Shown here: one piece after another, positions 1 to 22,441 of the stretch | How positions within the stretch are numbered: the first letter of the stretch is position 1 | How the letters are laid out: each line of letters begins with the position of its first letter | Source: Fredinandcohnia aciditolerans | Lineage (GTDB): Bacteria > Bacillota > Bacilli > Bacillales > Bacillaceae_L | Assembly (NCBI GenBank): GCA_003640645.1 | Contig: QGHH01000002.1 | Location: 88,180-112,179, forward strand | Direction of reading: 5' to 3' | Length of the DNA stretch: 24,000 bases | Made by a program: the position numbers and the translations under genes | The notes under the pieces: generated by a model | What the model was told of the DNA's origin: nothing | What the model saw: only the letters and a program-made list of their open reading frames with translations | Database searches by the model: none

Positions 1-1
1 T

Positions 2-562
2 CCTCCCGTTATTGAAGATGTTCTAGAGCTTCTTGACGAGGGGGATGTTATAACACATTGTTATCATGGGAAAATTGGTACTCCTTGGAAATCTAATGGA
101 CTCCCCGTGATGGCATTAGAAAAGGCTTTGGCAAGGGGGGTGAAAATGGACATAGGTCACGGAGCGGCAAGTTTTAATTTTGATGTATGCCACAAAGCAA
201 TTCATAATGGATATTTCCCGTTTTCAATTAGTACTGATGTGCATATCCGTAATATTCAAGGACCAGTTTATGATCTGGCTACAACTATGACGAAAACTTT
301 GCATTGTGGATTATCGCTAATGGATATTATTGCATCTGTCACACTCGCACCTTCAGAAGTCCTTGGTATAAAGAATTGGTGCAGACTAGATGGAATAATA
401 ACGAATGCGACGCTATTCCGAATTTCGCATGATCCAGTAAGAAATAGAGAAATTAAGGATTCAAATGGAACAACTATACAATTAGATCGACATATTGTTC
501 CAACAGGAGTGATTACTGAAAAAGGCTTTAAATCCATAGTAGGAGAAAAAAGTATAGTTTAG
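2..562 (+). CDS. Metal-dependent amidohydrolase/deacetylase-family protein, C-terminal part (5' end lies outside the window)
   Basis: The frame is open from base 2 (PPVIEDVLELLDEGDVITHCYHGK...) into the listed 107..562 ORF. THCYHG, DIGHGAASFNF and STDVH strands resemble the metal-ligand strands of dihydroorotase-like amidohydrolases. The gene ends 31 nt before the next gene. Confidence 0.7.
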   Translation, partial: PPVIEDVLELLDEGDVITHCYHGKIGTPWKSNGLPVMALEKALARGVKMDIGHGAASFNFDVCHKAIHNGYFPFSISTDVHIRNIQGPVYDLATTMTKTLHCGLSLMDIIASVTLAPSEVLGIKNWCRLDGIITNATLFRISHDPVRNREIKDSNGTTIQLDRHIVPTGVITEKGFKSIVGEKSIV

Positions 563-593
563 TATTTTCATAATTAAGGGAGGGGTTTTTTAC

Positions 594-2111
594 ATGAAAA
601 AGGCATTATCGATAATTTTGATATTACTAGTCATCTTGACTGGGTGTACCTCTAATAACACTAGTTCAGGTGATGAGAAGGAGAAGGAGAAGGACAGTAG
701 TGAAAAAGAGCTAGTTGTGGCCCAAGTATCTGATGCAAGTACAATGGACCCACAAAACCAAGGTAGCATGCCAGATATGAATATTTTAATTAATATCTTT
801 GACACGCTGGTGACACGTGATGAAAATAATAATCTTGCACCAAGTTTAGCAACGGAATGGGAAGCAATTGATGATACAACTTGGCAATTCAAGCTTCGAG
901 ATGATGTGACGTTCCACAACGGGGAGAAGTTCGATGCCGAGACAGTAAAATATAGTATTGAAAGATTAAATAGTTTGAATGAAATTGTTGAACTCCGTAA
1001 TGTGAAGGAGGTCAATGTGGTTGATGAGTATACCGTTAATATTGTAACGGAAGCTCCAGATCCAATTCTCCCTAACAAAACAGTTCTTTTCGGTGGGGTA
1101 ATGGTACCGAAACAATATATTGAAGAGGAAGGCGAGGATAACTTCGCAAAGAATCCGGTAGGAACTGGCCCGTTCAAATTTGTTTCGTGGAAAAAGGATA
1201 ATGAGGTTGTCTTGGAAGCAAATGATGACTATTTTAAAGGCGCACCGGAAATCGATAAATTAGTGTTTAGAACAATTCCAAATATCGCCGATATGGTAGC
1301 TGCTGCGAAGACGGGTGAAATTGATATCGCAACAGGTCTAACATCTGACGTTGCGATACAGCTTGAAGGTGATCAAAATATTAGCGTTGTTGCTGCAGAC
1401 TGGATTCGTACATTCTATCTTGTAATTGATACAACAAAGGATGGTCCATTAGCGAAGAAGGAAGTACGTCAGGCTATGAATCATGCAGTAAATATACAGC
1501 AAATTATAGATACAGTACTTGGCGGATATGCCAAACGTGTAGCTACATTAATTCCATCACAGAACTTTGGAGTTGACTCAGATATTAAGCCTTTTGAATA
1601 TGACCTTGAAAAAGCTAAAGAGCTATTGGCACAAGCAGGATATCCAGATGGTTTCGAAGTAGATTTAGATGCTGCTAATACAGATTCAGCGATTGTTCAA
1701 GCAATTGCAGCGGAATTAGAAAAAGTCGGCATTAAAGTAAAAGTAAACTTAATGGATCGTACCACACTTATGAGTAATATAACGGCTAAAACCTCAGCAC
1801 CCCTTTACTATTTAGGTAATACTGGCTGGACAATGGATGCGATTAGTAACTTCCAATCTTATATCAAGAGTGACCGACGATATAATGTCTGGAAAAATGA
1901 TGAAGCAGACCAGCTAATGGATGTTCAAGAGCAAAATATAGATCCAGAAATTCGACAAGAAGCATTAACTGGAATTCAAGAGCTTCTTATTGAAGAAGCA
2001 CCATATGTATATTTGTGGCAACTTGATGGTCTATATGCGATGAGTAATGATGTTGAGTGGGAACCAAACGTAATAGGCGTATTAAATATGTATAATGCAT
2101 CACTAAAATAA
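594..2111 (+). CDS. ABC transporter substrate-binding lipoprotein, family 5 (Dpp/Opp/Nik peptide-type)
   Basis: A GGGAGGGG RBS lies just upstream. The signal peptide carries a lipobox (MKKALSIILILLVILTGC) and is followed by a Ser/Glu/Lys-rich tether. The 505-aa length and NPVGTGPFKF-type motif are typical of SBP_bac_5 proteins. Confidence 0.9.
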   Translation: MKKALSIILILLVILTGCTSNNTSSGDEKEKEKDSSEKELVVAQVSDASTMDPQNQGSMPDMNILINIFDTLVTRDENNNLAPSLATEWEAIDDTTWQFKLRDDVTFHNGEKFDAETVKYSIERLNSLNEIVELRNVKEVNVVDEYTVNIVTEAPDPILPNKTVLFGGVMVPKQYIEEEGEDNFAKNPVGTGPFKFVSWKKDNEVVLEANDDYFKGAPEIDKLVFRTIPNIADMVAAAKTGEIDIATGLTSDVAIQLEGDQNISVVAADWIRTFYLVIDTTKDGPLAKKEVRQAMNHAVNIQQIIDTVLGGYAKRVATLIPSQNFGVDSDIKPFEYDLEKAKELLAQAGYPDGFEVDLDAANTDSAIVQAIAAELEKVGIKVKVNLMDRTTLMSNITAKTSAPLYYLGNTGWTMDAISNFQSYIKSDRRYNVWKNDEADQLMDVQEQNIDPEIRQEALTGIQELLIEEAPYVYLWQLDGLYAMSNDVEWEPNVIGVLNMYNASLK

Positions 2112-2125
2112 TCAAACAATGGGAG

Positions 2126-3052
2126 GTGAAATCTTTGTTATCATATATACTTCGTCGCTGCTTATATGCAATTTTTGTCTTATTTGGAGTAGCAACAGTA
2201 GTGTTTTTCATTACTAGAATGACAGGTGATCCGGTAGCGATTATGTTGCCTCCCGATGCAACTGTTGAGCAAATGGAAGAATTACGAATAGAGCTTGGCA
2301 TGGATAAGCCTTTACTAACTCAATACGGTATATTCATTTGGGATTTACTTCACTTTGATTTAGGAGAATCCTTACGATACGATGATTCAACTCTTAAACT
2401 AATTTTGGAACGGTTACCTGCAACCCTTCAACTAGCCTCTACATCATTAATTATTGCATTGCTCGTTTCCATTCCAGCTGGAATTATCTCAGCACTTAAG
2501 CAAGGTTCTTTGTTTGATCGCTTAATCATGTCATTTGTGCTAATTGGGCAATCCTTTCCAGTATTTTGGGTGGGTATATTGCTCATCCTCTTTTTCTCTG
2601 TTTCATTGGGGCTTCTGCCAACCGGAGGTATTGGCGGTTGGGAGCATTTAATATTACCAGCATTTGCACTAGGCCTGCACATGATGGCATTAATTACAAG
2701 ATTACTGCGTTCCTCATTAATTGAAGTGCTTAGCTCGGATTATATTCGGACAGCTAGGGCAAAGGGGTTACTATCCTTTAAAGTTATAGCTAAACATGCA
2801 TTACGAAATAGTCTATTACCTGTTGTTACAATAGTAGGATTACAGGTTGGTGCTCTATTAGGAGGATCTGTTGTAACTGAAATGGTGTTTGCGTGGCCAG
2901 GTGTTGGTCAAATGATTATTCAGGCAATTAACTTTCGTGATTTTCCATTAGTTCAAACAGCCATCATTTTATTAGCAGGAATATTTGTGTTAATTAATCT
3001 GATTGTGGACTTACTATATGTTGTTATTGATCCACGCATTCATTACAAGTAG
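2126..3052 (+). CDS. ABC transporter permease, DppB/OppB-type
   Basis: Multi-TM protein with the ...DYIRTARAKGL... EAA-loop signature of DppB/OppB permeases. The track start (GTG 2126) sits inside the GGGAGG RBS (2121-2126), so TTG at 2135 (MLSYILRR...) is the better-spaced start. Confidence 0.9.
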   Translation: MKSLLSYILRRCLYAIFVLFGVATVVFFITRMTGDPVAIMLPPDATVEQMEELRIELGMDKPLLTQYGIFIWDLLHFDLGESLRYDDSTLKLILERLPATLQLASTSLIIALLVSIPAGIISALKQGSLFDRLIMSFVLIGQSFPVFWVGILLILFFSVSLGLLPTGGIGGWEHLILPAFALGLHMMALITRLLRSSLIEVLSSDYIRTARAKGLLSFKVIAKHALRNSLLPVVTIVGLQVGALLGGSVVTEMVFAWPGVGQMIIQAINFRDFPLVQTAIILLAGIFVLINLIVDLLYVVIDPRIHYK

Positions 3053-3066
3053 AAAGGGGGATACTT

Positions 3067-3912
3067 ATGGCTAAGAAAAAACGTAAAGGAAACATAGGTA
3101 ATCTCTTTAACTGGTTTTCTATCATTACTCTTGTACTATTTATCATAATTGCAGTGTTCGCACCACTAATTGCTCCCCATGATCCGAATGCACAAAACTT
3201 ATTAGCACGTTTGAAACCACCAATTTGGGCAGAAGGCGCGGAACCCGGCTATTTATTGGGTACAGATAATCTCGGTCGTGATATATTAAGTCGAGTTATT
3301 TACGGAACACGCATATCTATTTTAGTTGGTCTTCTAGCTGTTGTAATATCGGGAACGATTGGTGTATTTATTGGATTATTATCAGGATATTATCGAATTT
3401 TCGATGGTTTTATGATGAGAATTGCAGATATCCAATTAGCGTTTCCTACTATTCTATTAGCACTTGCGATTGTTGCTGTACTTGGTGGTGGATTAGGAAA
3501 TCTTATTATCGTGTTAGGTATAACCGGCTGGGTTGAATATGCAAGGGTCATTCGTTCTGAGGTTCTTAGTATGAAAACAAGCGACTTTGTTGTTGCAGCA
3601 AGTACAATTGGTGCAAGTGATGGGAGGTTATTATTCCGACATATCCTCCCGAATATTTTAGCACCTATAATAACAATTGCTACATTCCATGTGGCAGCTA
3701 CAATTATTGCAGAATCCTCCCTGAGTTTCCTAGGGCTAGGAGTACCAATCAGTATACCAAGCTGGGGAAATATGCTTAGTGAAGGTCAGTTATATGTTAG
3801 CTCTGCCTGGTGGATGTCGCTCTTCCCAGGCTTAATGATTATGTTTGTCGTTTTAGCTATTAATATATTAGGAGATTATATCCGAGAAGGTTTTAATCCC
3901 AATGCCAAATAA
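3067..3912 (+). CDS. ABC transporter permease, DppC/OppC-type
   Basis: A GGGGGA RBS lies upstream. The N-terminal anchor is followed by a LIAPHDP motif characteristic of DppC/OppC, and then a BPD_transp_1-like polytopic core. Confidence 0.9.
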   Translation: MAKKKRKGNIGNLFNWFSIITLVLFIIIAVFAPLIAPHDPNAQNLLARLKPPIWAEGAEPGYLLGTDNLGRDILSRVIYGTRISILVGLLAVVISGTIGVFIGLLSGYYRIFDGFMMRIADIQLAFPTILLALAIVAVLGGGLGNLIIVLGITGWVEYARVIRSEVLSMKTSDFVVAASTIGASDGRLLFRHILPNILAPIITIATFHVAATIIAESSLSFLGLGVPISIPSWGNMLSEGQLYVSSAWWMSLFPGLMIMFVVLAINILGDYIREGFNPNAK

Positions 3913-3927
3913 TTAGGAGGATATATC

Positions 3928-5184
3928 ATGTCTTGGTCATATGCGACTCACTATGTATGCGATCGATGTACAGCCGATTTTTCACTATCTCTCCCTTTAA
4001 ATACATGTCCGCGTTGTGGTGGTTTACTGGAAGTACAATACGATTTACAACAAATGAAGCAGGATATATCCCCCGATATATTCAAGGGACGTGGAAATTC
4101 CATGTGGCGCTGGCACGAGTTTTATCCATTAAAGGAAGTTGAAAATATAGTATCACTGGGAGAAGGTGGCACGCCCTTAATAAAGTCTGTCTACGCAGCA
4201 AAAGAGCTCGGAATGAGAAATCTTTATTTTAAAAATGATACCTTAATGCCAACTGGAAGTTTTAAAGACCGTGGTTTCAGTCTTGCTATTAGCTTTGCTA
4301 AGGAATTGGGGATAACGAAGGGCCTAACGTATAGTTCTGGTAATGCTGGGGCATCTTTTGCAGCTTATTCTTCACGGGCTGCAATTGATGCAACTGTACT
4401 TGTCGAATATTTAGCCAATCCCGTGAAAAAGGCGATAATCTCCTTATATGGTGCCAATGTCGCAACACTTCATTTTAATAACTTTGAAGAGATTACTAAA
4501 ATGCTGGAACTGGCTGTCCAAGAGCTTGGCTTATACCAGTTTGTTAATTTTATTAATCCTATTAGACATGAAGCAATGAAGAGTTATGCATATGAGATAA
4601 GTGAGGAGTTTAGCTGGCAGGCACCAGATTTCATGGTTCATCCAGTTGGAACAGGTGGGGGAATCTATGGAGCTTGGAAGGGGTTTCGAGAATTAAAAAC
4701 GCTTGGGTGGATAAATACATTACCAAGGATGGTAGCTGTACAACCCGAAGCAACTGGGCCAATTACGAGAGCATATCAAAGTGGGAAAAGAAAAGCAGTA
4801 AAACATGGTGATTCGTCAAAAACAATTGCCCAAAGTATTTCTGGAAATGCACCCATTCAAGACGGTGAACGTGTATTAAATACTATTTACGACTCAGGTG
4901 GCTTTGCGGAAAATGTGTCTGATGCTGAAATAGTAGAAGCAGTACGCTGGCTTGGTCATGATGGAATATGCGCCGAACCAGCATCTGCAGCATCTTTAGC
5001 AGCAGTTAAAAAGAGTGTTGAAGACGGTCGAATACAACCAAATGACACAGTGGTATGTGTCATTACTGGTAGTGGTCTGAAACAAGCATCCATTATTGAA
5101 CAGTCTGCCCAAGTTTCTACACATAAGTTAAATGCTACTATTAGTGAACTTGAAGCATTGATCGCACAAATAAACCGGACATAA
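3928..5184 (+). CDS. Threonine-synthase-like fold-type II PLP-dependent enzyme with N-terminal Cys4 ribbon
   Basis: AGGAGG RBS upstream. The N-terminus carries CDRC-x18-CPRC. Further motifs are the PLP-lysine motif PTGSFKDRG, the SSGNAGAS and GTGGG loops, and a C-terminal AEPASAAS...ITGSGLK. This pattern matches the ThrC subfamily but diverges from the canonical STGNTSAS/GNAGN motifs. Confidence 0.8.
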   Translation: MSWSYATHYVCDRCTADFSLSLPLNTCPRCGGLLEVQYDLQQMKQDISPDIFKGRGNSMWRWHEFYPLKEVENIVSLGEGGTPLIKSVYAAKELGMRNLYFKNDTLMPTGSFKDRGFSLAISFAKELGITKGLTYSSGNAGASFAAYSSRAAIDATVLVEYLANPVKKAIISLYGANVATLHFNNFEEITKMLELAVQELGLYQFVNFINPIRHEAMKSYAYEISEEFSWQAPDFMVHPVGTGGGIYGAWKGFRELKTLGWINTLPRMVAVQPEATGPITRAYQSGKRKAVKHGDSSKTIAQSISGNAPIQDGERVLNTIYDSGGFAENVSDAEIVEAVRWLGHDGICAEPASAASLAAVKKSVEDGRIQPNDTVVCVITGSGLKQASIIEQSAQVSTHKLNATISELEALIAQINRT

Positions 5185-5198
5185 AAAGGAGAGATTTT

Positions 5199-6356
5199 AT
5201 GTCAAATGTAAGTCAGGTTATTCAAAGATTAATGGAATGTATGGCACTTAAAAGTCCCACTCCACCAGGAGATGTTGCTGATGTTGCAAATTGGATCGAG
5301 GCATGGGGAAAGGATTTTGGAGCCATCATCGAACGTCAAACAGTAGAACCAGGAAAGGATAATCTAATAATGACTTTAGAGTTCGGTCCAGGACCAACCT
5401 TGGTGTTCAATTCACACATGGATGTGAACAATCCAAAGGGTCAAAAGTGGAGTAATCCTCCATTCGAACCTAAGATTAAAGGTAATCGTTTATACGGACT
5501 TGGAGCATGTGATGCCAAGGGAAGTCTTGTAAGCATGATTGCAGCCATGGAACGGCTTACCGGAAATCAGAATGAACTTAGCGGAAAACTCATATTGACG
5601 GCTGTAATGGGAGAAGAAGCTGGGGGACTAGGTAGTTTACACCTAGTCAATCAGGGTATAGAAGCAGATGGGGCTGTAGTAGGTGAACCGACACATTTAG
5701 AGGTTTGTACTGCTCACAAAGGTACATACATGAGAAGGCTAGGTTTTCGAGGACTAGAATCACACTCAGGAAGACCTGATTTAGGCATTAATTCTATTGT
5801 CCATGCCGCACATTTTGTCTTGGAATATGAGAAGTTAAATAAACAACTGATTCGACTTCCACACCCTTTACTTGGTCCTGCAAGTGCAGAAGTAACGATT
5901 ATCCAAGGTGGTACAAGACAGAACACTATACCAGGTTACACCGAAATGATTATTGATCGACGGCTCCTACCCGGAGAAACACATGCTAAGGCAGATCGAG
6001 AGTTAGATAGGGTTCTAGCAAATATCAAAGAAACTGTATCTGATTTACATATTGAAAAAATAGAGACGGTAGTAGCAACGATTCCATCAGAGACACATTC
6101 TTCAGAGAAGATTGTTGAAGTGGCACTCAATACTATAAACAATGTAACAGAATCAATTCATCAACTGAAAGGATTTCCGGCAGGATGTGATATGAGTAAG
6201 CTTGTTACCATTGCTAATATTCCGACTGTTATTATCGGACCGGGGAGTTTGAAGCAAGCACATGCTCCAAACGAGTTCGTTGAGATAACCCAGGTGGAAC
6301 AAGCCGTTGATATCTATGAAAATATAGCGCGAAGTTTCTTGAAGAAGGTGAAGTAA
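5199..6356 (+). CDS. M20-family metallopeptidase/deacylase (ArgE/DapE/ACY1-like)
   Basis: AAGGAGAG RBS upstream. Metal-ligand motifs are NSHMDV, GACDAKG and MGEEAGG, with a central dimerisation-domain-sized insert. The length is 385 aa. Confidence 0.85.
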   Translation: MSNVSQVIQRLMECMALKSPTPPGDVADVANWIEAWGKDFGAIIERQTVEPGKDNLIMTLEFGPGPTLVFNSHMDVNNPKGQKWSNPPFEPKIKGNRLYGLGACDAKGSLVSMIAAMERLTGNQNELSGKLILTAVMGEEAGGLGSLHLVNQGIEADGAVVGEPTHLEVCTAHKGTYMRRLGFRGLESHSGRPDLGINSIVHAAHFVLEYEKLNKQLIRLPHPLLGPASAEVTIIQGGTRQNTIPGYTEMIIDRRLLPGETHAKADRELDRVLANIKETVSDLHIEKIETVVATIPSETHSSEKIVEVALNTINNVTESIHQLKGFPAGCDMSKLVTIANIPTVIIGPGSLKQAHAPNEFVEITQVEQAVDIYENIARSFLKKVK

Positions 6357-7406
6357 ATGATGAATGTTGTAAAGTTACTTGAACAAGCAAGAAATAATAA
6401 GTCTTTTTCAGGAGCTGTGTTTGCATATGGAAATTCCCATGAAATAGTGGCACAAGGTGCAATAGGAACATTAGTATGGGGTGGCCAAAAGACAGAAATT
6501 GATAGTTTGTGGGATTTGGCTTCCGTTACAAAACCGCTAGTTGCCCTTGCTCTTATGAAGCTTTTTGAACAAGGTGTGCTTTCACTCGAAGATACTATCT
6601 CCTATTTTCTACCGAGCTATGAGGGGACAGATAAGGCTGAGATTACGCTGTTTGAATTACTAGCACATACAAGCGGGATACCAGGTCAGCAGCCCTTATA
6701 CAAACATGCAAAGACAGTGGAAGATATGAAAGTGGCCGTCCGGCAATTGCCCCTTAGACATGAACGAGGAACTTATGTAGAATACACATCCCAGGGGTTT
6801 ATGATTGTAGGAGATATCATTGAACAAGTAGTGGATAAGAGGCTTGATGAAGCAATGAATGAGCTCGTTTTTCATCCTATTGGAGTAAAGAATACCCTAT
6901 TTAATCCACCAGTAATGTTAAAAAATCGAATTGCTGCAACCGAAAACTGTCCATGGCGAAACCAAATGGTAAAAGGTCAGGTACATGATGAAAACTGTGT
7001 GGTGCTAGGAGGGGTTGCAGGTCATGCAGGGTTATTCGGAACGGCGGAAGATTTGTCCACTATTTGTCAAATGATGTTACGAAAGGGTGCAACAGACCAA
7101 GAAGACTACCTAAAGGCTCCTACTGTTAGGGTTATGACTAATAATTTTACATCTTCATTGAATCTAGCTAGAGCATTAGGTTGGCAGGCCAAAGATCAAC
7201 ATGGTTCTCCAGCAGGAGATCTCTTTTCTCCATCCTCTTATGGCCATACTGGTTTTACAGGAACAAGTATCTGGATGGATCCAGAAAAAGATCTATTTGC
7301 CGTTCTGCTAACAAATCGTGTTCACCCAACACGTGAGAATCATTCTATTCAACGTATACGCCGTCTTTTTCACAATCTAGTTGTACTTAATATGGATAAT
7401 AATTAA
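6357..7406 (+). CDS. Serine hydrolase of the class-C beta-lactamase / D-aminopeptidase / esterase fold
   Basis: The ATG directly abuts the previous stop (TAAATG). Motifs are the S-x-x-K nucleophile (ASVTKP), a Y-x-x second motif (EYTSQG) and the GHTGFTGTS third motif typical of the Beta-lactamase (PF00144-like) family. Confidence 0.85.
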   Translation: MMNVVKLLEQARNNKSFSGAVFAYGNSHEIVAQGAIGTLVWGGQKTEIDSLWDLASVTKPLVALALMKLFEQGVLSLEDTISYFLPSYEGTDKAEITLFELLAHTSGIPGQQPLYKHAKTVEDMKVAVRQLPLRHERGTYVEYTSQGFMIVGDIIEQVVDKRLDEAMNELVFHPIGVKNTLFNPPVMLKNRIAATENCPWRNQMVKGQVHDENCVVLGGVAGHAGLFGTAEDLSTICQMMLRKGATDQEDYLKAPTVRVMTNNFTSSLNLARALGWQAKDQHGSPAGDLFSPSSYGHTGFTGTSIWMDPEKDLFAVLLTNRVHPTRENHSIQRIRRLFHNLVVLNMDNN

Positions 7407-7419
7407 TTTGGAGGGATAT

Positions 7420-7797
7420 ATGGTGAAAGAAGGTATTGTAACAAGTCAAGCACCCACTCCAGTGGGGGCATATTCACAAGCAGTAAAGGTTGGTAATCGA
7501 GTTTATGTAGCAGGTCAAGGGCCAAAAAATCCTGAAACAGGAGAAACACCAGCAACAATAAAAGAACAAACAAGACAGGTGTTGCATAATATCCAACAAA
7601 TATTGGAGGCGGCAGGCGCAAAAATGTCCGATGTTGTCAAAGTGACAGCACATTTATCCGATTTAAAGTATTTTGACGAATATAACGAAGTTTATTGGGA
7701 GTTTTTCAGTGAACCGTATCCAGTTCGTACAACAGTTGGAAGTCAGTTGATGGATATACTTGTGGAGATTGATGTGATTGCAGAAATCATTGACTAA
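7420..7797 (+). CDS. RidA/YjgF/L-PSP-family reactive-intermediate (enamine/imine) deaminase
   Basis: APTPVGAYSQAVKVGNRVYVAGQ... and the C-terminal ...VEIDVIAE are hallmarks of the RidA family. ATG 7420 is preceded by GGAGGG (7410-7415). The track start TTG 7381 overlaps the upstream gene and lacks an RBS. Confidence 0.9.
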   Translation: MVKEGIVTSQAPTPVGAYSQAVKVGNRVYVAGQGPKNPETGETPATIKEQTRQVLHNIQQILEAAGAKMSDVVKVTAHLSDLKYFDEYNEVYWEFFSEPYPVRTTVGSQLMDILVEIDVIAEIID

Positions 7798-7866
7798 ATC
7801 TTCAATTGGAGTAAAATCAAATCATTATCTAAGAAAAACAGTGGAATGTGAATCGAGGTAAAGGCA

Positions 7867-8502
7867 GTGGAAAATATAAAAGATGAATTGGAGTTACTCA
7901 AAAAAATCATCAAAGGAATAAGTGCACAATTTGGGGATAAATGTGAAGTGGTCCTCCATGATTTAACGGGTGATTACGAGAATTCTATCGTGGCGATTGA
8001 AAATCCTACGATTACTGGTCGTAAAATCGGAGACAGTGGCACAAATTTAGGTCTTGAGGTTCTTCGTGGAACAGTAAAGGATGGAGATCGTTATAATTAT
8101 ATTACACATACAAAGAGTGGTAAGATTCTAAGGTCAACCTCCATATATATTAATAATAGTGAAGGTACACCTATTGGTGCAATCTGTATAAATCTTGATA
8201 TCTCTGATTTAATTATGGCAGAAAAAACAATCCAATCAATCACTATGCATAGTCTAAATTCAGAGGTGAAAGAGGTCTTTGTAGAAGATGTAAATGAGCT
8301 CCTAGAATACCTCATTCAGGAGTGCCAAAAGGAAATCGGTAAACCAGTTGTCCATATGACAAAGGAAGATAAGATACAAGCGATTAAATACCTAGACAAA
8401 CGCGGTGCCTTCTTAATTAAAAAGGCAGGGGATCATGTATGCCGCTTTTTAGACATTTCTAAATACACATTATATACCTACCTAGACAATGGTCGTGAGT
8501 AA
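7867..8502 (+). CDS. YheO-like PAS-domain transcriptional regulator with C-terminal HTH
   Basis: The N-terminal ...GDKCEVVLHDL... segment is typical of YheO-like sensor domains. The C-terminal ...KEDKIQAIKYLDKRGAFLIKKAGDHVCRFLDISKYTLYTYL is an HTH_22-like motif. The GTG start follows GAGGTAAAGG. Confidence 0.7.
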   Translation: MENIKDELELLKKIIKGISAQFGDKCEVVLHDLTGDYENSIVAIENPTITGRKIGDSGTNLGLEVLRGTVKDGDRYNYITHTKSGKILRSTSIYINNSEGTPIGAICINLDISDLIMAEKTIQSITMHSLNSEVKEVFVEDVNELLEYLIQECQKEIGKPVVHMTKEDKIQAIKYLDKRGAFLIKKAGDHVCRFLDISKYTLYTYLDNGRE

Positions 8503-8516
8503 TACTTCTGGGTTTA

Positions 8517-8553
8517 CTGGGTCACAGTGACACCCCGAAATTTGTCGGAGGTT
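8517..8553. repeat. Intergenic repeat, degenerate copy D (half hairpin plus CGAAATTTGTCGGAGGTT motif)
   Basis: CTGGGTCACAGTGACACCCC matches the left half of the 31-nt repeat at 15861 and 19621. GGTCAC-N10-CGAAATTTGTCGGAGGTT aligns, with identical spacing, to 18116-18149 (GGTCAC-N10-CGAAGTTTGTCGAAGATT). Confidence 0.7.
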
Positions 8554-8576
8554 GCGAGCTAGAATGGAGAATCATA

Positions 8577-8605
8577 AAAAGAGAGCTATTAAGAAGCTCT
8601 CTTTT
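8577..8605. terminator. Bidirectional rho-independent terminator between convergent genes
   Basis: An 11-bp stem, AAAAGAGAGCT (8577-8587) / AGCTCTCTTTT (8595-8605), encloses the 7-nt loop ATTAAGA. The A-tract and T-tract give a U-run in both orientations. It lies 75 nt after the + gene stop and 4 nt after the - gene stop. Confidence 0.8.
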
Positions 8606-8608
8606 ACA

Positions 8609-9013
8609 TTATTGATTATATAATTCTTTATAGGCAATTACTTTTAATGCTAGAATTTCATCTTCGCTTAATTTGCTCTGTACTTCATCAAGTACTTCTT
8701 CATTAGAAATTGTACCTTCTTGTACTTGGTGTCTAATCTCGTTTAGTTGAGTAATACCGACTTTATTAATCAGAACTTTAGTCGCCTCCTCTTTTGTTGT
8801 AAATGGAAGTTTACTCTTATCAACTGATTTTGCGTCTTTCAAAAAGGTCATTAACTCTGGATCGTTTACAATTGCCCTTTTAATATCTTCGATTTCTCCG
8901 CTATTTTCTAATTCTGACTAATCAGATACTATTTTGGTTCCAAAATAGTAAACCCCATAACCTAGAATCACAAATACAACTATGGTGAAAAAAAGAAATT
9001 TTAATAACCTCAT
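8609..9013 (-). pseudogene. Small membrane-anchored protein gene interrupted by an in-frame TAG at codon 32
   Basis: On the minus strand, AGGAGGAGAG-N6-ATG (9013) opens MRLLKFLFFTIVVFVILGYGVYYFGTKIVSD, followed by TAG (8920-8918). The same frame then continues SELENSGEIEDIKRAIVNDPEL into the listed 80-aa ORF (MTFLKDAK...). The internal ATG at 8851 has no RBS. Confidence 0.6.
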
Positions 9014-9112
9014 ATCTTCACTCTCCTCCTATAACTATACATAAATCATGTAGGGCTGAATAGTGTCATTGGCTTTTTATTAATGTTACTAGCAGATAGC
9101 TGTTGATAATTA

Positions 9113-9244: not shown

Positions 9245-9685
9245 CTATGAAAACACTGGAATTTTACGAGCGATTGATTCTGTTAAACGAGTTGCAACTT
9301 TTGGAACAGCCCATTTAATAATCGGTGTTAACACGGCACCCGATAATCCGCCTGCATGGACTTCCACGGTACAAGTCATGGTTGTTTTCCCATTACCATC
9401 TTCTGCAGTAAAGTGACCGCTACCTGTAAAGTTATCTGATAACCCTTTCAGTTCAAACTTAATATTAGAAGGCTCATTCCACTCAGTAATATCTACCTGC
9501 GCTTTTACCGTCTTTTTAATTCCTTTTACATTACCTTCAAACGTCCAAATTGATTGCTTGTCATTAATGATTTCATGTTCTTTATACGCTGGTACTGTCG
9601 TTGCCCACTTTTCAAGATCACTGACATAGTCCCAAACTGCTTGTACATCTACTGGAATTACTACTGTATGAGTTCCTGTCGCCAT
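9245..9685 (-). CDS. SRPBCC-superfamily (CoxG / polyketide-cyclase-like) ligand-binding protein
   Basis: 146-aa ORF. Its pattern (...VWDYVSDLEKWATTVPAYKEHEI...GSGHFTAEDGNGKTTMTCTVEVHAGG...) resembles CoxG/SRPBCC proteins. It has its own terminator downstream. Confidence 0.65.
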   Translation of the reverse strand: MATGTHTVVIPVDVQAVWDYVSDLEKWATTVPAYKEHEIINDKQSIWTFEGNVKGIKKTVKAQVDITEWNEPSNIKFELKGLSDNFTGSGHFTAEDGNGKTTMTCTVEVHAGGLSGAVLTPIIKWAVPKVATRLTESIARKIPVFS

Positions 9686-10162: not shown

Positions 10163-10951
10163 ATGCTTCAGGCTGAAAGGGCTGAAAAAATACTGCAATT
10201 CATCAATGAGAAAGGATTTGTCAAAACAACAGAACTGATTGAATTATGCAAAGTATCAAAACCCACTATTATTCGTGATTTGCAAGTACTTGAAAAAGAA
10301 GGTGCTATTATTCGAACACATGGTGGCGCAAAGAGTGTAAAGAAGGGGACTAATTTTGAACCAAAACAAAGCTTGAAGGAACAAATTGCAAATGAGAGCA
10401 AAAAACAGATTGCTAAAGTTGCAAAACAATATATTTTTCCTGGTGAAACCATTCTGCTTGATAGCGGGACTACTACATTAATGTTAGCTAACGAGCTTAA
10501 GGATATGGAAAATATAACAGTCATTACAAATGATATTAAGGTTGCAATGGTTCTGGCCGAGAATGATGGAATAGAGTTAGTCGTTCTTGGCGGTCAAAAG
10601 AGAAAAGGTGTATACAGTCTAATTGGCCCCATTACAGAAATGCTTACAAGTCAATTCCATGTAGATAAGGTGTTCCTTACTGCAGATGCGATACATATTC
10701 ACAAGGGAATTACGAACTCAAATATAGAGGAATCTAGTGTGAAAAAGGCTTTCATAGACATTTGTAAGGAACGATTTTTATTAGTAGATAGTAGCAAATT
10801 CAGTTCAATTTCTTTTTTTAAAATTGCGGATATCTTTGAGGTCCAAACCATTATTACAGATGAAGGTTTTTTACAATTATCTGATCTCGAGTCTTGGAAC
10901 AGTTTTTCTAAAGATATTATAACAGCTGGCAAAGAGGAAGGTGGTATATGA
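10163..10951 (+). CDS. DeoR-family transcriptional regulator (SgcR-like)
   Basis: The N-terminal DeoR HTH is ...TTELIELCKVSKPTIIRDLQVLEKEGAIIRTHGGA. The C-terminal sugar-phosphate-binding DeoR_C region carries LLDSGTTT. The gene sits at the head of a PTS cluster. Confidence 0.9.
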   Translation: MLQAERAEKILQFINEKGFVKTTELIELCKVSKPTIIRDLQVLEKEGAIIRTHGGAKSVKKGTNFEPKQSLKEQIANESKKQIAKVAKQYIFPGETILLDSGTTTLMLANELKDMENITVITNDIKVAMVLAENDGIELVVLGGQKRKGVYSLIGPITEMLTSQFHVDKVFLTADAIHIHKGITNSNIEESSVKKAFIDICKERFLLVDSSKFSSISFFKIADIFEVQTIITDEGFLQLSDLESWNSFSKDIITAGKEEGGI

Positions 10952-11431
10952 GTGAATCTACTTAATGGTTTATTGGATGAAGAGTTAATCTTTCTTAAGT
11001 TGAAATGCAATTCGAAAGAACAACTTCTAGGTTGGCTTGGAAACGAATTAGTCGAAAAGGGCTACGTAATGCAGGGGTATGAAAAAGCACTCTTGGAACG
11101 TGAGGCTTTGTATCCTACTGGATTAGTGACAACCAGCTGTGGGGTTGCGATTCCACATGCTGAACCGTCCTATGTAATTAAAGAAAGAATTGCTATAGGT
11201 ATTTTAGAAGATGGAGTAGCTTTTGGAAACATGGGGGCGTTAGACGAAGAAGTGCTAGTGCGTGTTGTGTTTCTATTAGCATTAAAGCATTCGTCACAAC
11301 ATCTAGAAGTATTACAGGCAGTAACGTCCCTTTTTCAAAACGAAGCATTTATGAATAACATTCAAAAGGCAGAGACAAAAGAAGACGTTCTAGAGTTGTT
11401 TCAATCAATCTTACTAGAGAAAAGGGGGTGA
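10952..11431 (+). CDS. PTS EIIA component, fructose/mannitol (PTS_EIIA_2) type (SgcA-like)
   Basis: The GTG start abuts the upstream TGA. The phosphorylatable His motif is GVAIPHA. The 159-aa size is typical of stand-alone EIIA-2 proteins. Confidence 0.85.
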   Translation: MNLLNGLLDEELIFLKLKCNSKEQLLGWLGNELVEKGYVMQGYEKALLEREALYPTGLVTTSCGVAIPHAEPSYVIKERIAIGILEDGVAFGNMGALDEEVLVRVVFLLALKHSSQHLEVLQAVTSLFQNEAFMNNIQKAETKEDVLELFQSILLEKRG

Positions 11432-11435
11432 ATCG

Positions 11436-12554
11436 GTGGAACAGCTCAAACAAATCATTAAAGAGCTCACATCCATATCTGGAGTAAGTTCTCGTGAGGA
11501 TAAGGTCATTTCTTATATGATAAAAAGTCTAAAGCCATATGGAGATCAAATCGAGGTTGACCCTTTAGGGAATGTTACATGTTCGTTTTTCTCTAGTGTT
11601 TCGAATCCTAAAAAGCTCATGCTATTTGCTCACATGGATGAAATCGGGTTTATTGTCCGAAAGGTTGAAGAGAACGGGTTTTTGCGGGTTGAACGAATTG
11701 GTGGAGTACATGTAAATGTGTTGCCGGGGCTAAAAGTGGATGTAATTGGTTCCAAAGGAGTTATCCCGGGGCTCATTGGAACCACGTCCCATCATTTTAC
11801 AAAGCAAGATCAAAAAGGAAAAGTACCCACTGATGGAATGTATGTTGATATTGGGGCAAGAACGAGGGAACATGTGAAGGAACTTGGAGTCAACGTTGGT
11901 TCTTTTATCACCTACCATTCTGATTTTACGGAACTAGCAGGTGACTTGATTTCCAATAAAGCCATGGATAACCGCGCAGCTTGTGCAAGCTTGCTACTGT
12001 TAGCTCAGGAACTATTTCAGATAAAAGATAAACTCCAATGGAATATTCATCTAGTCGCATGTGTGCAAGAAGAGTTTAATATTCGGGGCATCATGCCAGT
12101 AGTGCGAAAACTATCACCAGATGTTTCGATAGGGATTGATGTCACTCCTTCTTGTGATACACCGGATATGAGCGGATATTCTGATGTGATCATTGGCAAT
12201 GGACCAGCCATTACGTGTATGAACTTTCATGGCCGTGGGACATTAGCCGGGGTACTCCCTGATGAAGGATTATTTAATCAAATTGTTACAATAGCCGAGC
12301 AGCAGAATATACCCCTGCAACGTGAAGTCGCACTCGGAGTTATTACTGAAAACGCCTTTATTTCATTTGCTGAACAAGGCATAATGACAGCTGGTTTTTC
12401 GATTCCTACAAGGTATACTCATACTCCAATTGAAACAGTATGTCTATCTGATGTAAAAGCACTCATACACGTCCTCTTCCATTTTCTACGATCTCTAACT
12501 ACTCATACATCATTTGGAAAACAATACATACTCGAGAAAGGAGGTGCACAATGA
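11436..12554 (+). CDS. M42-family peptidase/endoglucanase-like protein (SgcX/FrvX-like)
   Basis: AAGGGGGTG RBS with a GTG start. Motifs include FAHMDEIGF, D...NRAA and QEEF, consistent with M42 (glutamyl aminopeptidase/CelM) metalloenzymes. Its stop overlaps the next start (ATGA). Confidence 0.85.
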   Translation: MEQLKQIIKELTSISGVSSREDKVISYMIKSLKPYGDQIEVDPLGNVTCSFFSSVSNPKKLMLFAHMDEIGFIVRKVEENGFLRVERIGGVHVNVLPGLKVDVIGSKGVIPGLIGTTSHHFTKQDQKGKVPTDGMYVDIGARTREHVKELGVNVGSFITYHSDFTELAGDLISNKAMDNRAACASLLLLAQELFQIKDKLQWNIHLVACVQEEFNIRGIMPVVRKLSPDVSIGIDVTPSCDTPDMSGYSDVIIGNGPAITCMNFHGRGTLAGVLPDEGLFNQIVTIAEQQNIPLQREVALGVITENAFISFAEQGIMTAGFSIPTRYTHTPIETVCLSDVKALIHVLFHFLRSLTTHTSFGKQYILEKGGAQ

Positions 12555-12826
12555 AAACCATAATCGTAGCTTGTGGTGCAGGTGTTGCAACTTCAACCTT
12601 AATTTGTGATCGAGTCCAAAAGTTACTTAGCTCTCAACATATTCAAGCAAACATTATCCAATGCACACTTGGTGATATTTCACGCTATGTAGATCAAGCA
12701 AATGTGATTGTTACGTCGATGAAAGTCGATCGTTCTTACTCAATTCCTATTGTATTAGGTATTTCCTTTATTACTGGAGTGGGTGTAGAGCAAACAGAAA
12801 AAGAAATTTTAGAGAGTCTATCTTAG
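12551..12826 (+). CDS. PTS EIIB component, galactitol/lactose-type (SgcB-like)
   Basis: A 91-aa protein with the N-terminal active-site Cys loop IIVACGAGVATS. It is translationally coupled to the upstream gene through an ATGA overlap. Confidence 0.85.
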   Translation: MKTIIVACGAGVATSTLICDRVQKLLSSQHIQANIIQCTLGDISRYVDQANVIVTSMKVDRSYSIPIVLGISFITGVGVEQTEKEILESLS

Positions 12827-12851
12827 TTTTATCACATAAGGGGGATTGTGT

Positions 12852-14192
12852 ATGGATTTTATTGTTAGTGTGTTTGATTATATAAGTGGTTTAGGTGCCA
12901 CTGTTATGATTCCAATCATAATTGCAATTGTTGGGCTTGTTTTCCGACTTAGTATCGGAAAGGCAATTCGTGCCGGTGTTCTAGTAGGTATTGGGTTTGT
13001 CGGTCTAAACCTAGTGTTAAATCTTATTTGGGACTATGTTGGTCCAGTAACAACTATTTTAATAGAAAAATTCGACCTTAATTTATCTGTTGTAGATGCG
13101 GGCTGGCCTGCTGCAGCTGGCGTAGCATTCGCTACAAAAGTAGGAGCCGTTATCATTCCTTTTATTATTATTGTTAATTTCCTCATGCTTCTGACAAAGC
13201 AAACCAAAACTGTCAATATCGATATATGGAATTATTGGCACTTTGCTTTTTCAGGTGCGATTATTATGTCGATCACAAATAGTTTCTGGTATGGGTTACT
13301 TGGGGCAGCAGGGCACGCTATCATTGCTCTGAAAATCGCCGATGTATCTGCTGAAAGGGTTCAAAAAGAGATCGGTATACCAGGTATCTCCATTCCCCAG
13401 GGGTTTGCAATTACGACCGTCCCTATTTACATGCTCCTCGATAAGATATATGACAGGATTCCAGGCTTTAAAAATAGGAAAATTGATTCAGCCGCAATAA
13501 ACCAAAAACTAGGGATATTCGGAGAACCATTTATGATTGGGTTATTCCTAGGTATTTTAATCGGTTTAGTAGTTGGCTATGATGTGAAGCAAACGATTGA
13601 ATTAGGTGTAGCGATGGCTGCCCTTATGCTCCTTTTACCACGAATGGTTAAAGTGATTATGGAAGGTCTGGTGCCTATTTCAGACGCGGCAAAAGCCTTC
13701 TTGGAAAAGCGCTTTAAAGGATCGGAGTTTTATATCGGACTTGATTCAGCCGTAACTCTTGGACATTCAACCACAATCACAATCGGAATCCTACTCATTC
13801 CAATTACCCTACTCCTAGCAATGATTATCCCATTAAATACAACCTTACCTTTCGGTGATCTAGCTGCAACTGCATTTTTTATCGCGATGGCCACTCCTAT
13901 TCATAGAGGGGATTTCTTTAGAACGTTAATAAGTGGAACCATTGTAATGGCTATCATTCTCATGCTCGCAAGCTATTTTGCTCCCGTTATTACTGAAACA
14001 GCTATGAATACAGGCTTTGACTTCCCTGAAGGTGCAACCGACATTACTGCATTATCAGCTGGTAATCTAGTAGCCTATGTGTTTTCCTTATTCGCCAAGT
14101 TAAAAATAGTTGGCGTGTTCTTAATCGTAGCCTTCGTAGCAGCGGTATTATTTTTCTTCAGAAAACCATCAACATCAGGGAATACGAATTAA
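12852..14192 (+). CDS. PTS EIIC permease, galactitol family (SgcC/GatC-like)
   Basis: A polytopic membrane protein of roughly 446 aa that directly follows EIIB. ATG 12852, preceded by AAGGGGGA, is preferred over the track's TTG at 12846. Confidence 0.85.
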   Translation: MDFIVSVFDYISGLGATVMIPIIIAIVGLVFRLSIGKAIRAGVLVGIGFVGLNLVLNLIWDYVGPVTTILIEKFDLNLSVVDAGWPAAAGVAFATKVGAVIIPFIIIVNFLMLLTKQTKTVNIDIWNYWHFAFSGAIIMSITNSFWYGLLGAAGHAIIALKIADVSAERVQKEIGIPGISIPQGFAITTVPIYMLLDKIYDRIPGFKNRKIDSAAINQKLGIFGEPFMIGLFLGILIGLVVGYDVKQTIELGVAMAALMLLLPRMVKVIMEGLVPISDAAKAFLEKRFKGSEFYIGLDSAVTLGHSTTITIGILLIPITLLLAMIIPLNTTLPFGDLAATAFFIAMATPIHRGDFFRTLISGTIVMAIILMLASYFAPVITETAMNTGFDFPEGATDITALSAGNLVAYVFSLFAKLKIVGVFLIVAFVAAVLFFFRKPSTSGNTN

Positions 14193-14218
14193 AAATATGA
14201 CTAACAAGAGGTGCAGGT

Positions 14219-15025
14219 ATGACTTGGTTAAAAGAAGTAATTGGAACGGAGAAATGTATTATTGCAATGTGTCATCTATTACCACTTCCTGGAGACCCGA
14301 AATTTGACAACGAAAAAGGGATGGACTACGTGATATCGATGGCTCGAAAGGACCTACATGCCCTTCAAGATGGTGGAGTAGATGCGGTTATGTTTTCCAA
14401 TGAGTTTAGCCTGCCGTATCTAACAGATGTACGAACCGAGACAGTTGCTGCAATGGCGAGAATCATAGGTGAATTGAAAAGTGAAATTAAAATTCCATTT
14501 GGTGTAAATGTCTTATGGGATGCCAAGAAGTCACTAGATTTAGCAGCCGCAACGAATGCGTTGTTTGTTAGAGAAATCTTTACTGGTGCTTATGCAAGCG
14601 ACTTCGGGATATGGAATACCAATGTAGGGGACACCATTCGTCATAAGCATTATCTAGGTGTAGGTGATGTGAAGGTTTTATTCAATATTATTCCTGAGGC
14701 AGCTAGTTATCTGGCACCTAGAACAATTGAAAGTATTGCAAAGTCAACCGTCTTTAATAATCAGCCTGATGCACTTTGTGTTTCTGGGTTAACGGCAGGT
14801 GTGGAGACAGATGCTCAACTTATGAAGCGAGTGAAAAAAACTGTTCCGGAAACTGTTCTATTTGCGAATACGGGTGTGAGGCTTACTAATTTTGAACAGC
14901 AGTTAGAGGTTGCAGATGGAGCCATTGTTGGAACAACATTTAAATACGACGGAAACTTCCATAATCATGTTGATAAAAAGAGAGTCAAAGAATTCATGGA
15001 TGAGGTAAAAAGATTCAGGAACTGA
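14219..15025 (+). CDS. BtpA/SgcQ-family TIM-barrel protein
   Basis: The N-terminal ...IAMCHLLPLPGDPKF... motif and the 268-aa size are characteristic of the BtpA/SgcQ family. GAGGTGCAGG RBS upstream. Confidence 0.8.
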   Translation: MTWLKEVIGTEKCIIAMCHLLPLPGDPKFDNEKGMDYVISMARKDLHALQDGGVDAVMFSNEFSLPYLTDVRTETVAAMARIIGELKSEIKIPFGVNVLWDAKKSLDLAAATNALFVREIFTGAYASDFGIWNTNVGDTIRHKHYLGVGDVKVLFNIIPEAASYLAPRTIESIAKSTVFNNQPDALCVSGLTAGVETDAQLMKRVKKTVPETVLFANTGVRLTNFEQQLEVADGAIVGTTFKYDGNFHNHVDKKRVKEFMDEVKRFRN

Positions 15026-15034
15026 CAGATGCTA

Positions 15035-15080
15035 CTGGGGCAAGGGGAATGTTCCTTATCCCACCGACGTTTGAGGAAGG
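15035..15080. repeat. Intergenic repeat, degenerate copy E, inside the PTS operon
   Basis: CTGGGGCAAGGGGAATGTTCCTTATCCCAC aligns base-for-base with the 31-nt repeat and retains hairpin potential. It is followed by CGACGTTTGAGGAAGG, related to the CGAAATTTGTCGGAGG motif of copy D. It starts 10 nt after the sgcQ-like stop. Confidence 0.65.
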
Positions 15081-15192
15081 GGGACGAACGATAGCAGTGG
15101 TCCTCGAGGTAGTTTCTGCTGGTGGTTAATTCATTAAAAAATATGACATGTTACACCAGGTATACGGTCATAGAGAAATAATGGAGGTAATA

Positions 15193-22389: not shown

Positions 22390-22441
22390 TTAAGAAATAA
22401 TGAATCAAAAAACTTTTTCCATCAATAGGAGGCTTGCACTT

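Follow-up and report, generated by a model that had tools for sequence, protein, structure and literature searches.

Catabolic operons that serve a specific substrate and combine a deacylase, a lyase dependent on pyridoxal 5'-phosphate (PLP) and a RidA protein are already known. In the ong cluster of Pseudoalteromonas prydzensis, dedicated to the catabolism of oxidised chitin (GlcNAc1A), these roles are filled by the N-deacylase OngB, the PLP deaminase OngC and the essential RidA protein OngD (PMC9537276). In Bacillus subtilis, the N-acetylmuramic acid (MurNAc)-L-Ala amidase AmiE is encoded in murQRP-amiE-nagZ, a place equivalent to that of yfeW in murQ-murP-yfeW (PMC5061867). Amidohydrolases of the cog3964 family have been documented, in the words of a paper title, as "incorrectly annotated dihydroorotases", and one solved member, 2ogj, is not superimposable on dihydroorotases. 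Here, we describe a gene cluster at positions 2-8502 of a 24,000-nucleotide stretch of Fredinandcohnia aciditolerans DNA (contig QGHH01000002.1, positions 88,180 to 112,179; hereafter the window). It encodes a PLP enzyme of the threonine synthase (ThrC) family, a cog3964-type amidohydrolase, components of an ATP-binding cassette (ABC) importer, an M20 metallo-enzyme, a serine hydrolase of the beta-lactamase fold, RidA and a YheO-type regulator. What appears to be new is a version of such operons whose core is a probably repurposed ThrC-family enzyme together with an amidohydrolase of the cog3964 family. Literature searches returned no description of such a pathway, in agreement with an earlier note, made from the sequence of the window alone, that recognised no named pathway in this gene combination. 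Judging from the sequences, we lean towards considering the cluster a self-contained catabolic module for uptake, hydrolytic unmasking, PLP-dependent elimination and Rid-assisted deamination. The conservation of the cluster and the likely systematic mis-annotation of its PLP enzyme are solid; the mechanism is proposed on the grounds given below.

Conservation and linkage of the cluster

Gene linkage was assessed by tblastn, using the proteins of the window and those encoded upstream in the closely related metagenomic contig L001 as queries against 40 non-redundant loci of the ThrC-like subfamily. As controls, 47 loci encoding more remote "threonine synthase" homologues (the outgroup) were searched. 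The subfamily consists of public proteins and genome loci with 49-96% identity, after which identity drops to 41% or less for everything else. It is found in Bacilli (Bacillaceae, Paenibacillus, Oceanobacillus, Sporosarcina and Salibacterium), in Hydrogenispora and many metagenome-assembled genomes (MAGs) of Clostridia and in Actinomycetes (Actinoallomurus, Nonomuraea, Microbacterium and Subtercola), as well as in a Thermomicrobiales MAG (Chloroflexi) and a Treponema MAG. Model organisms are not represented among its members, whose public names are unspecific or probably wrong; cultivable carriers of the cluster are Sporosarcina psychrophila (L090, CP014616), Neobacillus novalis and Paenibacillus chondroitinus. 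An exact database look-up of the window protein returned no record, the nearest being a 96%-identical JGI protein. One 79%-identical homologue of the Bacillaceae type (P0003) is labelled Rhodococcus qingshengii in NCBI, a label that probably reflects a contaminated or mislabelled assembly.

Results showed that the amidohydrolase gene accompanies the ThrC-like gene in 33 of the 40 subfamily loci (24 of 26 when loci with less than 6 kb of flank are set aside), while it was detected in none of the 47 outgroup loci. The same pattern was observed for the permeases (32/40 against 0/47), the solute-binding protein (SBP) and the ATPases (each 30/40 against 1/47), the serine hydrolase (27/40 against 0/47), a Rid protein, either RidA or its PF14588 paralogue (24/40 against 4/47), the M20 enzyme (18/40 against 0/47) and YheO, confined to Firmicutes (14/40 against 0/47). 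The linkage extends over 40 loci of four phyla or more, so that the possibility raised in the earlier note, that they might not be conserved together, clearly fails. Such conserved linkage indicates that the cluster is a functional unit and not a chance neighbourhood. A Pfam census of the 98 other flanking open reading frames (ORFs) revealed no further recurrent family.

Gene order is reshuffled between phyla and content is retained. Minimal versions (L015, L016 and L021) contain only the ThrC-like, amidohydrolase and serine hydrolase genes, the first two being directly adjacent. In Treponema these two genes overlap, the amidohydrolase start (11257) lying inside the ThrC-like stop region (11260). 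The core pair is formed by the ThrC-like enzyme and the cog3964-type amidohydrolase, its near-obligate partner. The M20 enzyme and the serine hydrolase are common yet dispensable in many versions, so that a set of three hydrolases of equal standing is not specifically supported. In the Treponema MAG (L003/L004, 9442-12303), a gene for a RimJ-like GNAT acetyltransferase overlaps the start of the ThrC-like gene; an acetyltransferase beside a deacylase suggests a cycle of substrate acetylation and deacetylation in that lineage.

Two relatives reveal the extent of the operon. Contig L001 is 94% identical in DNA across window positions 1-9069, and Bacillus sp. REN16 (L005) is 86% identical across 1-8495. 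Both carry two oligo_HPY ABC ATPase genes and a full amidohydrolase gene (373 amino acids) directly upstream of the SBP gene, with genes for a GntR-FCD regulator and an enolase-superfamily protein ahead of these. The full operon comprises about eleven genes, of which positions 2-8502 hold the final nine; the two ATPase genes and the first part of the amidohydrolase gene lie upstream. The importer looks incomplete in the window because the window edge cuts the operon, and is itself complete in L001 and L005. Synteny stops shortly past yheO, and the neighbours beyond 9069 (L001) or 8495 (L005) are entirely different. As the flanks differ even in relatives of 94% and 86% identity, the cluster occupies a variable junction. 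No mobile-element genes were found in the window; other versions are flanked by Mob_Pre and a HepT/MNT pair (L085) or by an IS200-type Y1 transposase (L088). There is no clear compositional signature of foreign DNA, the GC content being 38-42% within the cluster vs 34-41% outside. We propose that the module spread by horizontal transfer.

The ThrC-like enzyme and the proposed pathway

Pfam and NCBIfam profile searches upheld every domain assignment made in the earlier note. The ThrC-like enzyme matches PALP (226.8 bits), carries an N-terminal CxxC...CxxC zinc ribbon and passes both NF006050, the NCBIfam equivalog model of threonine synthase (338.8 bits, cut-off 303), and TIGR00260 (186.4 bits, cut-off 167.1). 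Every public record names the subfamily "threonine synthase". The best PDB sequence matches and the 19 best Foldseek matches are all threonine synthases, with a CapA2-type enzyme at rank 20; ThrC-family paralogues with other chemistry exist, of which the CapA2 type is an example. A genuine threonine synthase, located by chance in a peptide-utilisation operon, would account for these matches and for the kept equivalents of K61, N154 and R160, but the rest of the pocket and the genomic context make this explanation very improbable.

The subfamily was aligned with four solved ThrCs (PDB 1uim, 2zsj, 2d1f and 6cgq; Thermus numbering), to which it shows 30-34% identity (E = 4e-65 for its profile against 2zsj). 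K113, N207 and R213 correspond to K61 (the PLP lysine), N154 and R160 of ThrC and are kept. Invariant changes were found at eight other positions: T85S, T88A, S155F, G163A, Q164M, N188T, A189G and N191G. In place of the canonical motifs STGNT, VNS-x-NP-x-R-x-EGQ and GNAGN, the subfamily carries SSGNAG, VNF-x-NP-x-RHE(A/G)M and GTGGG, which are invariant in at least 35 sequences. Residues T88, S155, R160 and N188, which we take from Thermus ThrC structures to be the phosphate site for substrate or product, are presumably needed for threonine formation; this is a lead and no result. The residues that discriminate the subfamily are F208, H214, A216/M217 and GTGGG, with R213 retained. SSGNAG was also considered as a unique motif and was rejected, being present in a PRK08197-like outgroup of 32-37% identity. 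Many of these outgroup proteins (L049, L046, L071, L054, L061, L075 and L053, all carrying MPTGSFKD) have no Arg160 equivalent (e.g., ...SHVYNPFFYEG...), and may likewise not be threonine synthases.

The gene environment gives further clues. Genes for homoserine dehydrogenase and homoserine kinase (hom and thrB) were found in none of the 40 loci among the annotated neighbours, which are the importer, hydrolases and Rid, and the census of flanking ORFs showed no recurrent biosynthetic gene. A biosynthetic ThrC is therefore unlikely, because the pocket is changed (T88, S155 and N188 are replaced invariantly), the neighbours are always catabolic, a Rid protein is the partner in 24 of the 40 loci and identity stays at 49% or more across phyla. 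Such identity, with a sharp gap to everything else, argues for a distinct function. The first description of the enzyme as divergent, and hardly a biosynthetic threonine synthase, thus agrees with both the changed pocket and the catabolic neighbours. We infer from its sequence that the enzyme is an eliminating lyase, whose enamine or imine product would be cleared by Rid.

The RidA protein of the window passes TIGR00004 (127.3 bits, cut-off 106.25), and the arginine of its ...YPVRTTVG... motif (R107 in the ORF numbering of L001) is invariant; we take it to be the equivalent of the catalytic Arg105. That RidA accompanies the ThrC-like enzyme, as had been suggested, holds for the loci with a Rid protein counted above.

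Gene content, linkage, conservation and the changes in active-site motifs suggest the following pathway, in which each catalytic step, the direction and the order of steps are proposals. Uptake of a small amide- and/or ester-linked conjugate would fall to the ABC importer, which depends on a lipoprotein and belongs to the Nik/Gsi/Dpp clade. The amidohydrolase would then strip an acyl or aminoacyl group, releasing a free alpha-amino acid whose beta or gamma carbon bears a leaving group. Larger or variant substrate molecules would be trimmed by the M20 deacylase and the PBP4B-like serine hydrolase, two enzymes that are optional in other lineages. The ThrC-family enzyme, which has lost three canonical residues and kept the PLP lysine and one arginine, would eliminate the substituent, yielding an enamine or imine and no threonine. 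RidA would hydrolyse this product to a 2-oxo acid and ammonium, and the YheO-type PAS-HTH protein would act as local regulator.

Several points weigh against this pathway. The score above the NF006050 cut-off, together with the kept N154 and R160, makes residual threonine synthase chemistry possible, and the phosphate-site role of T88, S155, R160 and N188 is, as said, presumed. The outgroup was retrieved with the peptide pattern MPTGSFKD and is no random sample of ThrC homologues. Rid is missing from 16 of the 40 loci. In one locus (L085), finally, no hydrolase gene at all accompanies those of the importer, Rid, the ThrC-like enzyme and YheO; there, the imported compound may be the direct substrate of the PLP enzyme.

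Hydrolases, importer and candidate substrates

Catalytic motifs are intact and invariant in all three hydrolases. The amidohydrolase fragment of the window scores 159.8 bits with PRK09237 and 147 bits with EF_0837. The full-length L001 protein (373 amino acids) reaches 344.5 bits against a PRK09237 cut-off of 371 and 307.6 bits against an EF_0837 cut-off of 432.15, passing neither. It is a close cog3964/PRK09237 relative, just under the model cut-off. The closest solved structures are those of Atu3266 (2ogj, 253.6 bits) and EF0837 (2ics, 201.7 bits), and the metal-ligand set H55-x-H57, K150, H183, H206/H209 and D266 is invariant in 23 orthologues, H206, H209 and D266 being retained in the window fragment. 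The published substrates of the cog3964 family are said to be esters of the acetyl-(R)-mandelate type.

The M20 enzyme passes TIGR01910 (236.5 bits, cut-off 217.6) and stays under the cut-off of all ArgE and DapE equivalog models (e.g., 201 vs 289 for PRK08588). Its best solved structure is DapE-like (7uoi), and its metal ligands H73, D75, D105, E139-E140 and E163 are invariant. The serine hydrolase (Beta-lactamase, 195 bits) has no signal peptide and carries invariant SxxK, YxS and HTG motifs (S56-V-T-K59, Y143-T-S145 and H297-T-G299). Its assignment as a D-aminopeptidase is not specifically supported: it shares 33% identity with Escherichia coli YfeW/PBP4B over 315 residues (E = 3e-41), and the best Foldseek matches of its AlphaFold2 model (pLDDT 93) are EstG, a macrolactin acyltransferase and family VIII esterases. 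Class C enzymes appear only from rank 26, no D-aminopeptidase was found among the top 50 matches, and no bla NCBIfam model comes near its cut-off. AmiE presumably has the same beta-lactamase fold.

The relation to YfeW, encoded by the third gene of murQ-murP-yfeW, raises the possibility that the cluster degrades cell-wall conjugates such as muropeptides, MurNAc-peptides or D-lactoyl-peptides, an explanation we regard as unlikely, if one to keep in mind. The serine hydrolase, PBP4B/AmiE-like, would cleave the lactyl-L-Ala amide, the M20 enzyme bonds of the gamma-D-Glu-diaminopimelate type, and the amidohydrolase would be a deacetylase or D-specific deacylase. This would be consistent with the order murQRP, amiE, nagZ in B. 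subtilis (PMC5061867) and with the DapE-like structure closest to the M20 enzyme. It would also fit several accessory genes: an L-Ala-D/L-Glu-epimerase-like (dipeptide-epimerase-like) gene with alanine dehydrogenase (L002), NlpC/P60 neighbours (L005 and L088), a glycoside hydrolase family 20 (GH20) gene (L021) and a gene resembling flavin adenine dinucleotide (FAD)-dependent D-2-hydroxyacid dehydrogenase (L022 and L090). In the same window, an M14 zinc carboxypeptidase gene at 18392-19582 (+) could encode an enzyme of the murein-peptide amidase type, which would match this theme. However, each supporting accessory gene occurs in just one or two loci, and no common peptidoglycan constituent needs a PLP-dependent beta- or gamma-elimination, so that the core pair is left unexplained. 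MurQ, MurK and NagA/B genes are not linked in the census of 98 flanking ORFs, which indicates that neither the MurNAc pathway nor the 2-keto-3-deoxygluconate (KDG) pathway is part of the unit.

The importer was first described as being of the Dpp/Opp type. Its family membership stands, with a family-5 SBP, two BPD_transp_1 permeases and, in L001 and L005, two oligo_HPY ATPases; as to its specificity for peptides, no equivalog cut-off is reached, and the nearest models are those of nickel or metallophore and glutathione systems. The SBP (SBP_bac_5, 288 bits; lipobox L-T-G-C at residues 15-18) is nearest to the NCBIfam models of nickel NikA, Opp4A, GsiB and CntA, all far under their cut-offs, and its nearest solved structures are 5u4o, HbpA, AccA, AgaA and YliB/GsiB, relatives that bind glutathione or haem, sugar-opines and nickel complexes. 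The DppB/NikB-type permease best matches the Opp2B nickel permease model (340.2 bits, cut-off 350), and the DppC/NikC-type permease matches Opp4C (280.5 bits), Opp1C (272.7 bits) and Opp2C (263.7 bits), all under cut-offs.

These results bear on the substrate originally suggested, an unusual peptide (containing D-amino acids, N-acylated or gamma-substituted) that would be trimmed by three peptidases before elimination of the freed amino acid. The Dpp/Opp family of the importer with its oligo_HPY ATPases, the deacylase/dipeptidase nature of the M20 enzyme and the dipeptide-epimerase-like gene of L002 are in line with it. Activity of a cog3964 enzyme on an (R)-configured acyl ester, with D-like stereochemistry, was reportedly described by Ornelas et al. 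in 2013 and would count in the same direction. Nevertheless, we find this version rather improbable, as the serine hydrolase is nearest to PBP4B and esterases and not to D-aminopeptidases, the importer most closely resembles non-peptide systems (Nik, Cnt and Gsi), two of the three hydrolases are dispensable, and many versions of the cluster include sugar-type importers or acid-sugar dehydratases. An ordinary or D-amino-acid peptide is not specifically supported by the permeases or by these sugar-related versions.

In three loci, a sugar-type CUT1 system takes the place of the importer: L021 carries an SBP_bac_1/CUT1 importer and the divergent GH20 gene instead of the Dpp-type system, and in L010 the ThrC-like gene has a CUT1 importer and a GFO/IDH/MocA oxidoreductase for neighbours. 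Enolase-superfamily genes, mostly for acid-sugar dehydratases, are present in 12 of the 40 loci. Six loci have, within the cluster, an orthologous ManD-like acid-sugar dehydratase gene (45-74% identity); four more, L001 and L005 among them, have DgoD- or glucarate-dehydratase-like genes in it or beside it, and another has the dipeptide-epimerase-like gene. The substrate could accordingly be an N-acylated amino-sugar acid or a glyco-amino acid, such as oxidised chitin, another 2-acylamino-2-deoxy-aldonate or O-glycosyl Ser/Thr. The cluster would then be a non-homologous analogue of ong, with the amidohydrolase as deacylase, the ThrC-like enzyme as dehydrating deaminase and Rid finishing the conversion to a 2-keto-3-deoxy acid. 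The sugar-opine binders AccA and AgaA among the solved relatives of the SBP and the functional triad and GH20 shared with ong (PMC9537276) would fit this explanation. It is nonetheless doubtful, since KDG kinase and aldolase genes are not linked (PfkB in 2 of the 98 flanking ORFs), no obvious role can be given to the M20 and serine hydrolases, glucosaminate is D-configured while ThrC chemistry is L-specific, and enolase-superfamily genes occur in no more than 12 of the 40 loci and GH20 in a single one.

Taken together, the gene content suggests a small conjugate in which an amino acid bearing a leaving group is joined to an acyl, hydroxy-acid or sugar-acid moiety. Tentatively, the ThrC-family lyase and the cog3964 amidohydrolase may define a pathway that has so far gone unnoticed and is widespread among soil and gut bacteria. 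Its substrate would join an amino acid to a sugar or hydroxy acid, the candidates being amino-sugar compounds that are oxidised or derived from muropeptides, and O-substituted Ser, Thr or homoserine.

The YheO-type regulator scores above the gathering thresholds of PAS_6 (123.1 bits) and HTH_22 (74.5 bits), and has no solved structural relative. Its gene is first, last or divergent depending on the lineage, and is replaced by an IclR gene in Actinomycetes and by those of a GntR/LacI hybrid or sigma-54 activators elsewhere.

Should the catabolic module be real, a tight cross-phylum family publicly called threonine synthase would gain a catabolic role. This would correct a systematic mis-annotation that matters because metabolic reconstructions infer threonine prototrophy from the gene; under the tentative pathway above, hundreds of "threonine synthase" database entries would be mis-annotated. 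The cog3964 amidohydrolases, none of which has a known physiological substrate, would gain a metabolic partner and context, and the YheO-type regulators, for which there is neither a solved structure nor a known effector, a handle for ligand hunting. The module would also point to an unrecognised nutrient, possibly derived from cell walls or glycans, common to soil Bacilli and Actinomycetes and to gut Clostridia and Treponema.

Layout of the locus and comparison with described systems

Nine co-directional ORFs were found on the + strand, with gaps of 31, 14, 14, 15, 14, 0, 13 and 69 nt, exactly as first reported. The features of the locus are listed below.

Features of the ThrC-like cluster (positions in the window)
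Feature	Position	Strand	Family or remark
Amidohydrolase gene, 3' part (186 codons)	2-562, runs off left end	+	cog3964/PRK09237-type binuclear-metal enzyme
Family-5 solute-binding lipoprotein (SBP) gene of ABC importer	594-2111	+	SBP_bac_5
ABC permease gene, DppB/NikB type	2126-3052	+	BPD_transp_1 + BPD_transp_1_N
ABC permease gene, DppC/NikC type	3067-3912	+	OppC_N + BPD_transp_1
ThrC-family PLP enzyme gene, public name "threonine synthase"	3928-5184	+	PALP
M20A metallo-deacylase/dipeptidase gene, ArgE/DapE subfamily, accessory	5199-6356	+	Peptidase_M20 + M20_dimer
Cytoplasmic serine hydrolase gene, beta-lactamase fold, PBP4B/YfeW-like, accessory	6357-7406	+	Beta-lactamase
RidA enamine/imine deaminase gene	7420-7797 (ATG; TTG at 7381 also open)	+	TIGR00004
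YheO-type transcription regulator gene	7867-8502	+	PAS_6 sensor + HTH_22
Sigma-70-like hexamer pair upstream of yheO, weak candidate	7790-7817	+	TTGACT-16-TAAAAT
Hairpin with A and T runs on its sides, probable bidirectional terminator	8577-8605		Between operon and convergent small ORF

The terminator hairpin noted earlier consists of a perfect 11-nt inverted repeat, AAAAGAGAGCT and AGCTCTCTTTT (8577-8587 and 8595-8605), with a 7-nt loop. A simple terminator scan missed it and listed four weak sites on the + strand, all within genes; its total of 9 sites, vs 5.8 +/- 2.2 expected, is at chance level. The hexamer pair upstream of yheO matches 10 of 12 consensus positions, and sigma-70-like sites are no more numerous in the region than in shuffled sequence. 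A yheO promoter is not claimed because the candidate site is poorly and only partly conserved in L005. Opposite the SBP gene, an antisense ORF of 195 amino acids at 590-1177 (-), whose translation is of low complexity and rich in Ser and Thr, can almost certainly be dismissed as a shadow ORF. The operon shares the hairpin with a convergent ORF of 80 amino acids at 8609-8851 (-), which has no family match and is followed by a gene for an SRPBCC/Polyketide_cyc2 protein at 9245-9685 (-).

The rest of the window is unrelated to the cluster. It includes a complete sgc-like phosphotransferase system (PTS) cluster at 10163-15786 (+), encoding a DeoR regulator, PTS EIIA_2, an M42 peptidase-like protein, EIIC-GAT, a BtpA/SgcQ-like protein and a ribulose-phosphate 3-epimerase, with an ORF of 91 amino acids (12551-12826) in the place of an EIIB. 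This cluster presumably mirrors E. coli sgcRAQCBXE. An ABC-2 exporter, the M14 peptidase gene mentioned above, a sigma-54-dependent activator gene at 20424-22220 (-) and a gene of the ornithine cyclodeaminase/mu-crystallin family at 22400-23563 (+) are also present.

Compared with the systems for murein-peptide utilisation, dpp-ykf of B. subtilis and mpp/mpaA/ycjG of E. coli, the cluster likewise joins a peptide-type ABC importer to several peptidases, with an epimerase-like enzyme in one species. In contrast, most loci here appear to have no LD-carboxypeptidase or dedicated epimerase, and the PLP enzyme, Rid and the cog3964 amidohydrolase are not known to have a counterpart in those systems. 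The serine hydrolase shares the SxxK, GQVHDE, GHAGLF and YGHTG-x-TGT motifs with YfeW/PBP4B. It differs from that protein in having no signal peptide, in being about 85 residues shorter and in scoring 151 against a PBP4B model cut-off of 385, and from both YfeW and AmiE in that its gene is not linked to murQ or murP. Atu3266 and EF0837, the best solved relatives of the amidohydrolase, have the same binuclear-metal ligand set. The ThrC-like enzyme has the fold and family of canonical ThrC (1uim, 2zsj, 2d1f and 6cgq), with equivalents of the PLP lysine, N154 and R160, whereas its N-terminal zinc ribbon is an addition, its context is catabolic instead of hom-thrB, and it has a Rid partner.

The closest parallel in function is found in ong, which likewise brings together uptake, an N-deacylase of the amidohydrolase superfamily, a PLP-dependent deaminating lyase, RidA and a local regulator (a repressor in ong), with GH20 as in L021 (PMC9537276). 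The components differ: by the descriptions in that paper, OngB is D-aminoacylase-like, OngC is of the D-amino-acid-deaminase type and transport is by SSS and TonB systems, whereas the present cluster has a cog3964 amidohydrolase, an enzyme of the ThrC family and import of the ABC type. Moreover, no KDG kinase is linked to it, and M20 and PBP4B-like hydrolases are added to it. By analogy, ong is a working precedent, assembled from other enzyme families, for the triad of N-deacylase, PLP deaminase and RidA.

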